A stretch of DNA of 6,185 bases, taken from Escherichia coli. Its GTDB lineage: Bacteria; Pseudomonadota; Gammaproteobacteria; Enterobacterales; Enterobacteriaceae. Shown piece after piece: positions 1 through 3,824 of the stretch. Position 1 is the first letter of the stretch, and each line of letters starts with the position of its first letter. The position numbers were made by a program, and so were the translations under genes. The notes beneath the pieces are model-generated. The model was not told where the DNA came from, ran no database searches, and saw nothing but the letters and a program-made list of their open reading frames with translations. Where the stretch lies: assembly GCF_003334255.1 (NCBI RefSeq), contig NZ_QOWU01000102.1; one strand, written 5' to 3'.

Positions 1-22
1 TGTGATGAACCGTCAGAAATGA
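1..22 (+). CDS. 3' end of an upstream gene, probably the terminase small subunit (partial, 5' end outside window)
   Basis: Frame 2 is open from the window edge (V-M-N-R-Q-K-stop) and its TGA at 20-22 overlaps the ATG at 19-21 of the large terminase as ATGA, the usual coupled TerS/TerL junction. Only 6 codons are visible, so the identity is inferred from position alone. Confidence 0.3.
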
Positions 23-1680
23 CCGGGACCGAACAACGTCTGTTCATCATGACTAAACTGAGCAATCCCTGGTGGCGCCTCAATCATCTCTACAAAATAC
101 AGAACGAAAAAGGTGAACTGGTCACCTTCAGAATGCGACCGGCGCAACGTCAGTTGTTTCGTAACATGCATAATAAAAACATTATCCTGAAAGCGCGCCA
201 GCTGGGATTTTCCACAGCCATTGATATTTATCTTCTCGACCAGGCATTATTCATTCCGCATCTCAAATGCGGGATCGTCGCTCAGGATAAACAGGCTGCC
301 AGTGAAATTTTCCGCACAAAAATTGCTGTACCGTTTGATCATCTCCCTGACTGGCTGAGAGCCTCATTCACCATCGTTGAACGTCGTAGCGGTGCCAGCG
401 GTGGCTATATCCTGTTTGGTCACGGCTCGAGTATTCAGGTGGCAACCTCATTTCGCTCAGGTACGGTGCAGCGCCTGCATATCTCAGAACACGGCAAAAT
501 TTGCGCGAAATATCCGGCTAAGGCGAAAGAGCTGCGAACCGGTACGCTTAATGCCGTCTCTGATGAATGCATTATTTTTGATGAATCCACTGCTGAAGGT
601 GTGGGTGGCGATTTTTACGAGATGAGTAACCGGGCACAGGAAATCACTGCATCAGGGCTGGCGCTGACGCCACAGGATTATAAATTCCATTTTTACGCCT
701 GGTGGCAGGATCTCAAATACAGCGCCAGAGTGCCGGAAAGCGGACTTAAGCTGTCACGGGAAAAAACAGCGTATTTTTCTGCGGTTGAAAAAGCAATGAA
801 CATCACGCTTACCGATGAGCAGAAACACTGGTACATCTGCAAGGAAACTGAACAGCGTGAGGAAATGAAGCAGGAATTTCCCTCAACGCCACAGGAGGCG
901 TTTCTGACGTCAGGACGACGGGTGTTCAGTGCGGAAAGCACGCTGCAGGCAGAGTCATTCTGTTCGCCACCGCTGATTGTTTATGACATTGAACCGGTTA
1001 CAGGAACGAAGACCAAGGCGCAGTCTCTGCGTGACGGGAATAAAGCCGAACAGCACCGGACGCTGATGAATTATCTGCTGGTCTGGGAGCTGCCGGATCC
1101 GGATGAAGAGTATGTATGCGGAGCAGATACCGCTGAGGGGCTGGAGCACGGAGACCGCTCATCGCTGGATATCATCAGATGCAGTAATGGTGAGCAGGTG
1201 GCTCACTGGTTTGGTCATCTCGATGCGGAGCTTTTCGCTCATCTCATTGCGCAGGTCTGCCGTATGTACAACAACGCGTTTGTGGGGCCGGAGCGTAACA
1301 ATCACGGACATGCCGTTATCCTGAAACTCAGGGAACTCTATCCGACGCGTTATATCTACAACGAACAGCACCTTGACCAGGCATATGACGACGATACGCC
1401 CCGTCTTGGCTGGCTGACAACCCGCCAGAGTAAACCGGTCCTGACAGAGGGAATGAAAACGCTGCTGAATAACGGCCTGTCGGGGATCCGCTGGTCGGGC
1501 ACATTATCAGAAATGAACACCTACGTTTATGACGCGAAAGGCTCCATGAATGCACAGGAAGGCTGTTTTGATGATCAGCTTATGAGCTACATGATTGCCC
1601 AGGAGATGCGCGCCAGAATGCCGGTGAGGGTAAAACAGAAAACGGATAAACGCAGAACCACACACTGGATGGCTCACTGA
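19..1680 (+). CDS. Terminase large subunit (ATPase plus nuclease), 553 aa
   Basis: Long ORF from the track. N-terminal half has a P-loop-like segment ILKARQLGFST (nt 184-216) and a Walker B with catalytic Glu, IIFDEST (nt 571-591). C-terminal half has RNase-H-like acidic motifs: YVCGADTAEG (nt 1111-1140), HGDRSSLD, and CFDDQLMSYM near the C-terminus. It sits directly upstream of a portal-sized gene. Start codon is uncertain: frame 1 is also open to the window edge, so the true start could lie upstream. Confidence 0.88.
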   Translation: MTGTEQRLFIMTKLSNPWWRLNHLYKIQNEKGELVTFRMRPAQRQLFRNMHNKNIILKARQLGFSTAIDIYLLDQALFIPHLKCGIVAQDKQAASEIFRTKIAVPFDHLPDWLRASFTIVERRSGASGGYILFGHGSSIQVATSFRSGTVQRLHISEHGKICAKYPAKAKELRTGTLNAVSDECIIFDESTAEGVGGDFYEMSNRAQEITASGLALTPQDYKFHFYAWWQDLKYSARVPESGLKLSREKTAYFSAVEKAMNITLTDEQKHWYICKETEQREEMKQEFPSTPQEAFLTSGRRVFSAESTLQAESFCSPPLIVYDIEPVTGTKTKAQSLRDGNKAEQHRTLMNYLLVWELPDPDEEYVCGADTAEGLEHGDRSSLDIIRCSNGEQVAHWFGHLDAELFAHLIAQVCRMYNNAFVGPERNNHGHAVILKLRELYPTRYIYNEQHLDQAYDDDTPRLGWLTTRQSKPVLTEGMKTLLNNGLSGIRWSGTLSEMNTYVYDAKGSMNAQEGCFDDQLMSYMIAQEMRARMPVRVKQKTDKRRTTHWMAH

Positions 1681-3824
1681 TGAAAAATGAAACTAATACC
1701 ATGGCGACGAAAAACGACAACGGAGCCACGCCGCGTTTTTCTCAGCGCCAGTTACAGGCGCTTTGTTCTGATATTGACAGTCAGCCTAAATGGCGCGATG
1801 CCGCAAACAAGGCCTGTGCGTATTACGATGGTGACCAGTTGCCACCGGAAGTTCTCCAGGTGTTGAAAGATCGCGGTCAGCCGATGACCATCCATAACCT
1901 CATCGCGCCTACCGTTGATGGTGTTCTGGGTATGGAGGCCAAAACGCGGACTGATCTGTTGGTGATATCAGATGATCCTGATGATGAAACAGAAAAACTG
2001 GCTGAAGCTATTAATGCTGAATTTGCCGATGCTTGCCGCCTTGGAAATATGAATAAAGCCCGTTCTGATGCCTATGCGGAACAAATCAAAGCGGGGCTCA
2101 GCTGGGTGGAGGTCAGACGGAACAGCGATCCGTTCGGGCCTGAGTTTAAGGTGTCTACTGTCAGCCGGAATGAAGTGTTCTGGGACTGGCTCAGCCGGGA
2201 GGCTGATTTAAGTGACTGCCGCTGGCTGATGCGCCGCCGCTGGATGGATACCGATGAGGCAAAAGCCACATTTCCGGGAATGGCTCAGGTTATCGATTAT
2301 GCCATTGATGACTGGCGTGGTTTTGTCGATACCACGGTTACTGAAGGCCAGCCCAGTCCGTTGATGAGTGCATGGGAAGAGTATCAGTCATGGGATCGAC
2401 AGCAGAACGAATGGCTTCAGCGTGAACGCCGTCGTGTGCTGCTTCAGGTGGTTTATTACCGTACATTCGAGCGTCTTCCGGTGATTGAACTCAGTAATGG
2501 ACGGGTGGTGGCCTTTGATAAAAATAATCTGATGCATGCGGTGGCTGTGGCATCCGGGCGGGTGCAGGTGAGAGTCGGGCGGGTAAGTCGTATTCGTGAA
2601 GCCTGGTTTGTGGGACCGCACTTTATTGTGGATCGCCCCTGCAGTGCGCCGCAGGGGATGTTCCCGCTGGTTCCCTTCTGGGGATACCGGAAGGATAAAA
2701 CCGGGGAGCCTTACGGGCTGATTTCCCGGGCCATTCCGGCACAGGATGAGGTGAATTTTCGTCGTATAAAACTGACGTGGTTGCTTCAGGCCAAACGCGT
2801 GATTATGGACGAGGATGCCACCCAGTTGTCAGACAACGATCTGATGGAGCAGATCGAGCGTCCGGATGGCATTATTAAACTGAATCCGGCCCGAAAAAAT
2901 CAGAAAAGCGTTGCTGATGTTTTCCGGGTTGAACAGGATTTTCAGGTTGCCAGCCAGCAGTTTCAGGTCATGCAGGAGTCGGAAAAACTTATCCAGGACA
3001 CGATGGGGGTTTATTCCGCATTTCTCGGGCAGGATTCAAATGCATCGTCCGGCGTGGCGATCAGCAACCTGGTGGAGCAGGGAGCCACAACCCTTGCCGA
3101 AATCAACGATAACTACCAGTTTGCCTGCCAGCAGGTGGGAAGGCTGTTGCTCGCTTATCTTCTTGATGACCTGAAAAAGCGGCGTAATCATGCGGTGGTG
3201 ATTAATCGCGATGATCGTCAGCGTCGCCAGACCATTGTCCTCAATGCTGAAGGTGATAATGGTGAACTGACCAATGATATTTCAAGGTTAAATACACATA
3301 TTGCGCTGGCTCCTGTTCAGCAGACACCGGCGTTTAAGGCACAGCTTGCACAGAGAATGTCAGAGGTTATTCAGGGGCTGCCGCCTCAGGTGCAGGCTGT
3401 TGTGCTCGATCTGTGGGTTAATCTTCTGGATGTGCCGCAGAAACAGGAATTTGTCGAACGTATTCGTGCGGCGCTGGGGACGCCAAAATCACCGGATGAG
3501 ATGACTCCGGAAGAGCAGGAAGCGGCAGCACAACAGCAGGCGCTGGAGCAACAGCAGGCAGAACTTCAGATGCGCGAAATGACAGGCCGGGTGGCTAAAC
3601 TGGAAGCAGAAGCTGCCAGGGCACGCGCGGCTGCGCAACGGGATAATGCTGGCGCACAACGGGATGTCGCCGCGGCACAGGGACAGCGTTATGTGGATGC
3701 GCTTAACCAGGCACATACGGCAGAAATCATTACCGGCATACAGAATATGGAACAGGAGCAGGAAGTTCTTCAGCAACAGATGCTGCATACACTACAACAG
3801 CGGATGCATGAAATGCCGCTCTGA
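1680..3824 (+). CDS. Portal protein, 714 aa, with a long C-terminal coiled-coil extension
   Basis: Long ORF from the track, immediately after TerL with a TGATG stop/start overlap (TGA 1678-1680, ATG 1680-1682). Its size (~700 aa) and position between terminase and scaffold match P22-like portals. The last ~105 residues are Q/A/E-rich and helical in character. An in-frame alternative start exists at 1701. Neither start has a clear Shine-Dalgarno, which fits translational coupling. Confidence 0.82.
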   Translation: MKNETNTMATKNDNGATPRFSQRQLQALCSDIDSQPKWRDAANKACAYYDGDQLPPEVLQVLKDRGQPMTIHNLIAPTVDGVLGMEAKTRTDLLVISDDPDDETEKLAEAINAEFADACRLGNMNKARSDAYAEQIKAGLSWVEVRRNSDPFGPEFKVSTVSRNEVFWDWLSREADLSDCRWLMRRRWMDTDEAKATFPGMAQVIDYAIDDWRGFVDTTVTEGQPSPLMSAWEEYQSWDRQQNEWLQRERRRVLLQVVYYRTFERLPVIELSNGRVVAFDKNNLMHAVAVASGRVQVRVGRVSRIREAWFVGPHFIVDRPCSAPQGMFPLVPFWGYRKDKTGEPYGLISRAIPAQDEVNFRRIKLTWLLQAKRVIMDEDATQLSDNDLMEQIERPDGIIKLNPARKNQKSVADVFRVEQDFQVASQQFQVMQESEKLIQDTMGVYSAFLGQDSNASSGVAISNLVEQGATTLAEINDNYQFACQQVGRLLLAYLLDDLKKRRNHAVVINRDDRQRRQTIVLNAEGDNGELTNDISRLNTHIALAPVQQTPAFKAQLAQRMSEVIQGLPPQVQAVVLDLWVNLLDVPQKQEFVERIRAALGTPKSPDEMTPEEQEAAAQQQALEQQQAELQMREMTGRVAKLEAEAARARAAAQRDNAGAQRDVAAAQGQRYVDALNQAHTAEIITGIQNMEQEQEVLQQQMLHTLQQRMHEMPL

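Follow-up and report, generated by a model that had tools for sequence, protein, structure and literature searches.

Overlapping genes are common in prokaryotes: some 15% of co-directional gene pairs share sequence, most frequently as overlaps of −4 or −1 nucleotides (nt) (Huber et al. 2019, PMC6728339), and in tailed phages such overlaps, with presumed translational coupling, are standard. In phage P22, genes 3, 2 and 1 encode TerS, TerL (the large terminase) and the portal protein; genes 3 and 2 overlap by 23 nt, gene 2's stop codon and gene 1's start codon have 1 nt in common, and a gap separates gene 1 from the next head gene, which has its own ribosome-binding site (RBS). In phage lambda, nu1 and A overlap by 26 nt, and the A/W and W/B pairs each overlap by 4 nt (ATGA type). 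In phage SPP1, genes 1 and 2 (TerS and TerL) overlap as AUGA with no RBS, and coupling was proposed there as a way to balance interacting partners (PMC6316719); this annotation-level proposal was all that a literature search for direct coupling experiments on terminase and portal genes returned. Here we analysed the corresponding genes in a 6,185-nt stretch of Escherichia coli DNA (contig NZ_QOWU01000102.1 of assembly GCF_003334255.1; hereafter, the window), which holds terL from its tenth codon onward, the portal gene and two further head genes. We found that the stop codon of terL and the start codon of the portal gene share one base, an arrangement kept in all related junctions that could plausibly couple portal translation to that of terL, and that terL itself very probably starts upstream of the window, inside terS, behind a strong Shine-Dalgarno (SD) sequence.

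Comparison with the described systems shows that the overlapping terS, terL and portal genes are an ordinary instance of an arrangement already known in P22, lambda and SPP1. The gene order is that of P22, the terS/terL overlap is 20 nt (vs. 23 nt in P22), the terL/portal overlap is 1 nt in both phages, and in both the next head gene lies beyond a gap and has its own RBS. The proteins, however, are not close relatives of those of P22, given that TerL here has 568 amino acids (aa) and is distantly gp17-like and that the capsid protein belongs to the N4-gp56 family. The gap between the portal gene and the next gene is 157 nt, with a terminator-like hairpin, as opposed to 13 nt in P22, and in place of the 1-nt overlap of the scaffold and coat genes of P22 there is here a gap of 22 nt. 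The chain of overlaps from terminase to portal also resembles that of lambda, which differs in having the extra gene W between TerL and portal, in cos rather than headful packaging, and in its unrelated proteins. The AUGA-type overlap of SPP1 is matched at the terS/terL junction in four clades of relatives (ATGA or GTGA), whereas in the lineage of the window terL overlaps by 20 nt and is preceded by a strong SD, and the RBS-poor overlapped gene is the portal gene. TGATG is one of the two commonest types of overlap for which coupling has been described in prokaryotes (PMC6728339; PMC12548453), and we found nothing here that differs from these in kind. Beyond correct annotation, these overlaps are accordingly of little importance as such.

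The overlap of the TerL stop (TGA, 1678-1680) with the portal start (ATG, 1680-1682) had been noticed in an earlier reading of the window from its letters alone (the sequence-only reading), and it is genuine: it joins two real, co-directional genes, for which PGAP and GenBank give the same boundaries. Among 81 related loci, with TerL identity down to 70% and portal identity down to 50-70%, we identified 23 distinct variants of this junction, all of which (23 of 23) keep an overlap, mostly as TGATG or TAATG (1 nt) and, in three clades, as ATGA (4 nt). The overlap is thus conserved, in three sequence forms, beyond what sequence identity alone would entail, and its persistence while its sequence form switches argues for selection on the juxtaposition itself. 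An alternative portal start at the second ATG (1701) was rejected, given that its anti-SD duplex energy (dG) is +0.4 kcal/mol and that it is replaced by ACA in some relatives within the clade, whereas the overlapping ATG is universal.

The same reading had described the portal start as lacking a convincing SD, which is a fair description: the best element, GGAUGG, has a dG of −5.5 kcal/mol and falls at the 20th percentile of random positions. The sequence just upstream of the portal start, CACTGGATG, is kept in all relatives, in which it encodes His-Trp-Met and has a dG between −3.1 and −5.5 kcal/mol; at its weakest it is at about the median of random positions, with the overlap still in place. 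The late operon has 15 same-strand junctions, 5 of them overlapping. Among the late genes, SDs are weakest at the two 1-nt overlaps (−5.5 and −3.4 kcal/mol), and those at the longer overlaps are stronger (−8.1, −6.6 and −10.8 kcal/mol).

Coupling of the portal gene to TerL is plausible from this gene geometry together with the weak SD, and we put the probability that coupling at the portal start is real at roughly 0.6. Portal translation would then most likely rely for the most part on ribosomes arriving from terL, which would reinitiate where stop and start overlap, scan over a short distance there, or hold the site open. Portal output (12 copies per virion) would be tied to the low output of terminase, whereas the two head genes beyond the terminator-like hairpin, of which the coat gene has a strong SD, would initiate independently. 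TerL, for its part, would probably rely chiefly on de novo initiation at its strong SD, possibly helped by translation of terS. In E. coli, 4 of the 5 tested overlapping pairs of the terL/portal type were found to be coupled (PMC6728339).

Several observations weigh against coupling, and most of them also favor a rival explanation, namely that the overlap reflects genome compaction only and that the portal gene is initiated de novo by free 30S ribosomal subunits on GGAUGG and the A-rich region around the start. The element lies at the ideal spacing of 7 nt, and its dG is close to that of the SD of the gene at 3982 (−6.1 kcal/mol), such that independent initiation is possible. Folding of the RNA from window positions 1620 to 1740 (minimum free energy −19.5 kcal/mol, z = 0.27 vs. 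shuffled sequences) did not place the portal start in a stable helix; with no occluding structure, a route to coupling by RNA unfolding finds no support. In the remaining pair of the 5 tested in E. coli, bioBF, initiation was de novo although the SD is very weak (PMC6728339), and depletion of the ribosome recycling factor was without effect on coupling genome-wide, from which it was argued that reinitiation is not a major mechanism in E. coli (PMC7538156). What speaks for coupling in the present phage, moreover, is geometry alone. Under compaction alone, however, it would be hard to account for the overlap in all 23 variants across three sequence forms, for its persistence in relatives in which the SD-like element falls to −3.1 kcal/mol, and for the coincidence of both 1-nt overlaps with the weakest late-gene SDs; together with the 4 of 5 coupled E. 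coli pairs, these findings make compaction an unlikely, although not an implausible, explanation. The mechanism of coupling in E. coli was judged unsettled in a 2025 review (PMC12548453), and the 1-nt terL/portal overlap offers a conserved and experimentally tractable case for its study.

At the beginning of the window, the sequence-only reading had placed a second overlap, ATGA at 19-22, in which the stop codon of the upstream gene (TGA, 20-22) would overlap a TerL start (ATG, 19-21). The letters are exactly there, but the overlap is not. In the reference with upstream flanking sequence, Escherichia phage PhiR12_3 (PV340552; L001), in which position 4001 corresponds to the first base of the window, the upstream gene encodes a TerS-like protein of 283 aa. 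Its stop codon (TGA, L001 3991-3993) lies 8-10 nt before the window, in a frame different from that of the TGA at 20-22, which therefore does not end an upstream protein-coding gene, and ATG 19 is internal to terL. The TerL frame has no stop codon between window position 19 and an upstream ATG at L001 3974, which lies 27 nt before the window. This ATG is preceded, at a spacing of 5 nt, by a GGGGAG SD embedded in the terS coding sequence, and it lies 17 nt upstream of the TerS stop codon, giving an overlap of 20 nt when the stop codon is counted. Read from this start, TerL has 568 aa and begins with MTFRKNEPR..., the window opens at codon 10, and ATG 19-21 encodes Met16, from which the protein would instead begin with MTGTEQ...; the N-terminal sequence found only in the form with the upstream start is MTFRKNEPRCDEPSE. 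Of the two candidate starts, the upstream ATG has an anti-SD dG of −8.1 kcal/mol, within the top 3% of all positions, whereas at ATG 19 the value is −0.3 kcal/mol and 78% of random positions do better. The upstream SD is as strong as that of the coat gene (−8.3 kcal/mol). The remark that ATG 19 has no SD thus stands as a description of the bases before it but does not bear on the start of TerL.

We further compared the terS/terL junction in 80 related viral loci (TerL identity 70-100%), which comprise 38 distinct junction variants. In all 38, an in-frame ATG or GTG is present 15-51 nt upstream of the equivalent of Met16 with no intervening stop codon. Over 36 variants the mean SD dG is −7.4 kcal/mol for the upstream start vs. 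−1.7 kcal/mol for Met16, and the upstream SD is the stronger of the two in 35 of the 36. The position of the upstream start relative to the true terS stop varies: the two overlap by 4 nt (ATGA or GTGA) in four separate clades and by 1 nt in one locus, and the start is located 20-23 nt inside terS in the clade of the window, in an 86% clade, in a 71% clade and in locus L079. The SD is strong (GGGGAG, GGGAGG or GGGGAGGG) in the clade of the window, the 86% clade and L079; in the 71% clade it is GGACGG (−5.7 kcal/mol). A programmed frameshift fusing TerS to TerL was rejected, since every clade has a proper terL start codon and since the 4-nt overlap of four clades leaves no room for a slippery site. 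RNA folding at the terS/terL junction (z = −0.06) gave no evidence that the start site is sequestered.

The mode of substitution upstream of Met16 points in the same direction. In the ten codons that separate this Met from the terS stop (13 loci, 11 distinct sequences), 3, 5 and 10 columns are variable at codon positions 1, 2 and 3, respectively, and the ratio of synonymous to nonsynonymous changes is 211:108 in the TerL frame, compared to 15:263 and 32:236 when the other two frames are read. The codons before Met16 thus evolve mainly by synonymous change in the TerL frame, and the stretch is therefore translated as part of TerL. With coding sequence upstream of ATG 19, an SD-bearing start in all clades and dominance of the 568-aa form in databases, the findings do not fit a TerL start at ATG 19; rather, terL very probably starts 27 nt upstream of the window, within the last 20 nt of terS. 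For the explanation as a whole, gene layout and proposed mechanism together, our confidence is about 0.8. Two points weigh against this placement: the upstream bases are not in the window, such that the start is deduced from 49 near-identical loci, and Met16 is invariant among the relatives. A sequence search against the PDB, in which TerL is distantly similar to T4 gp17, gave matches only from about residue 50 onward and is uninformative on the N-terminus.

As originally proposed, TerL would start at ATG 19-21 without an SD and be fed only by ribosomes terminating at TGA 20-22. The curated record NC_025434 (POCJ13) does annotate TerL from the Met16 ATG, and this codon is invariant among relatives and is followed in the window by the A that completes the ATGA string. 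The POCJ13 record, however, shows a 25-nt gap to terS and not an overlap; in the reference, the upstream gene stops 28 nt before ATG 19 in another frame; and in 8 related loci the base after the Met16 ATG is T or G (ATGT or ATGG), which leaves no overlapping TGA. Because any ATG followed by A makes ATGA, and because this fourth base varies among relatives, the string is a coincidence of a Met codon followed by a Thr codon and no more than chance. Taken together with the coding signal before Met16 and the upstream start, which is present in every clade and has the stronger SD in nearly all variants, these findings already largely refute the proposal, which we regard as hardly credible at all. 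The further claim that the first three genes are chained by stop/start overlaps without SDs likewise fails at the TerL start, even though terS, terL and portal are contiguous and overlapping; the misreading arose because the window cuts off the true start, with its strong SD, upstream.

Database annotations show the same contrast. The 568-aa form of TerL is found on at least 1000 contigs vs. 3 for a 553-aa form, and PGAP annotates the former with the 20-nt overlap with terS. The longest contig with the 553-aa form (protein P0002) is 29,601 nt long, the same as locus L003 (IMGVR_UViG_2657245500_000006), which begins 17 nt before the Met16 ATG; because of this match in size, the 553-aa call looks like an artefact of contig truncation. 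The TerL of this widespread group of Stx phages should thus be annotated with 568 aa, starting inside terS, and records and calls on truncated contigs that start at Met16 are 15 residues short. The edge of a window can evidently produce a false overlapping start without an SD, and the short call on L003 would be an instance of the same trap.

Met16 is invariant in 80 of the 80 related loci, down to 70% identity, whereas the tail of 5-17 residues that precedes it varies in length and in sequence. An internal start at Met16 could conceivably make a minor contribution to TerL. The window and its flank also contain a 10-codon mini-ORF (open reading frame; MNRDVMNRQK, L001 3990-4022, window −10 to 22), the ATG of which overlaps the terS stop (ATGA) and the TGA of which overlaps the Met16 ATG (ATGA). 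These two consecutive overlaps could in principle form a relay, in which a fraction of the ribosomes terminating on terS would restart on the mini-ORF and then at Met16, yielding a 553-aa isoform beside the TerL made from the upstream start. Consistent with such a relay, the mini-ORF is kept in 37 of the 49 loci of the clade of the window, a GTG-started analogue occurs in most of the 86% clade, and Met16 is constant next to a variable tail. Conservation is, however, patchy: the relay is lost in 12 of the 49 close relatives, in which the terS stop is TAA, and is absent in about 25 more distant loci. Its geometry, moreover, would arise from the relation of the frames with about chance probability, no SD precedes Met16 in any clade, and ribosomes elongating from the strong upstream TerL start would occupy the site. 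We therefore consider the relay very improbable, and we give slightly less credence still to the idea that through it a constant share of the ribosomes finishing terS would reach Met16, with translation setting the ratio of TerS to short TerL. The features of the window are listed in Table 1.

Table 1. Coordinates of the features in the window (dG, free energy of the anti-SD duplex in kcal/mol; SD, Shine-Dalgarno sequence)
Feature	Position	Strand	Remarks
terL (large terminase), codons 10-568 and stop	1..1680	+	PHROG 2 / 24361; listed ORF 19..1680
Last six codons (C D E P S E) of the TerL N-terminal tail	1..18	+	not intergenic
ATG, internal Met16 of TerL	19..21	+	invariant in relatives; probably not the main start
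Out-of-frame TGA closing the mini-ORF	20..22	+	mini-ORF ATG at L001 3990
GGAUGG, weak SD-like element	1667..1672	+	7 nt before the portal ATG; within conserved His-Trp-Met codons of the TerL C-terminus
TGATG, TerL stop and portal start	1678..1682	+	one base shared (the A)
Portal protein gene, 714 aa	1680..3824	+	PHROG 156, E 1.4e-252
Terminator-like hairpin, 10-bp stem and T-run	3841..3868	+	after the portal gene
Head-assembly gene, 335 aa	3982..4989; GGAG SD 3972-3975	+	PHROG 479, unknown function; dG −6.1
Major capsid gene	starts at 5012, runs off the window end at 6185; GAAGGAG SD 4995-5001	+	PHROG 334, major head protein; dG −8.3

Nucleotide identity and synteny identify the window as the head-gene module of a 933W/Sp5-like (Sepvirinae) short-tailed lambdoid phage of the Shiga toxin (Stx) type. 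Of the phage records searched, 194 match the window at 90-99.5% identity, 190 of them over at least 80% of its length, and, with few exceptions, these come from phages of E. coli and Shigella, either Stx-converting or of related short-tailed lambdoid types. The top match is PhiR12_3, with 99.5% identity over the whole window. None of the fetched loci is identical to the window; the closest, L045, has 20 mismatches over 4177 nt. The order terS, terL, portal, ORF61 and capsid is that of POCJ13, which belongs to the Sepvirinae, and of Sp5, a relative that has been systematically dissected and in which ORF58 is TerS, ORF59 TerL, ORF60 the portal and ORF62 the capsid (PMC5155283). The portal gene of the window is by synteny the counterpart of Sp5 ORF60, which was assigned as the portal by experiment (PMC5155283). 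In a scan against NCBIfam, the capsid protein matched the N4-gp56 family (TIGR04387; 84.4 bits vs. a cutoff of 60), and no family was found for TerS, TerL, the portal or the 335-aa protein; a scan of the window against Rfam gave zero matches.

Both SDs ascribed to the downstream head genes are present. The GGAG is at the position first given for it, and the GAAGGAG of the coat gene, 10 nt from the ATG at 5012, lies one base to the left of the 4996-5002 claimed earlier. The label of scaffold given to the gene at 3982-4989 is unproven. This gene is by synteny the counterpart of Sp5 ORF61, which is essential for head formation with no role assigned, a scaffolding role and phenotype having been given to ORF65 (PMC5155283); the 335-aa protein may or may not be a scaffold.

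In the 157-nt gap that follows the portal gene, a strong terminator-like hairpin (GGAACCCCGT/ACGGGGTTTT) with a T-run lies 17 nt after the portal stop, and a second hairpin is found at about 3869-3895. In the L048/L052 clade and in L079, the portal gene is likewise followed by a hairpin with a T-run, with other stem sequences, and in the other 70% clades it is not. The hairpin at 3841-3868 looks like a real boundary element that ends the terS-terL-portal block; in a late operon under Q antitermination, it could act as a terminator or as an element of mRNA stability or processing. The last ~110 residues of the portal protein (window 3480-3821) have a high content of Q, A and E and resemble a long helix or a coiled coil, recalling the portal barrel of P22.

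Two further observations concern length variation in the module. In terS, which precedes the window, there is a repeat region of low complexity (SAQKNAQKSAQ..., L001 3290-3460), and the terS ORF measures 813-876 nt from stop to stop among relatives, with lengths of 825, 834 or 870 nt in the clade of the window, which suggests variation in repeat copy number. Some Stx2a phages (e.g., LC616048, 35911-43363) match the window in two pieces that span 7453 nt instead of 6185 nt, which would imply an insertion of about 1.27 kb, the size of an insertion sequence, within the head module.

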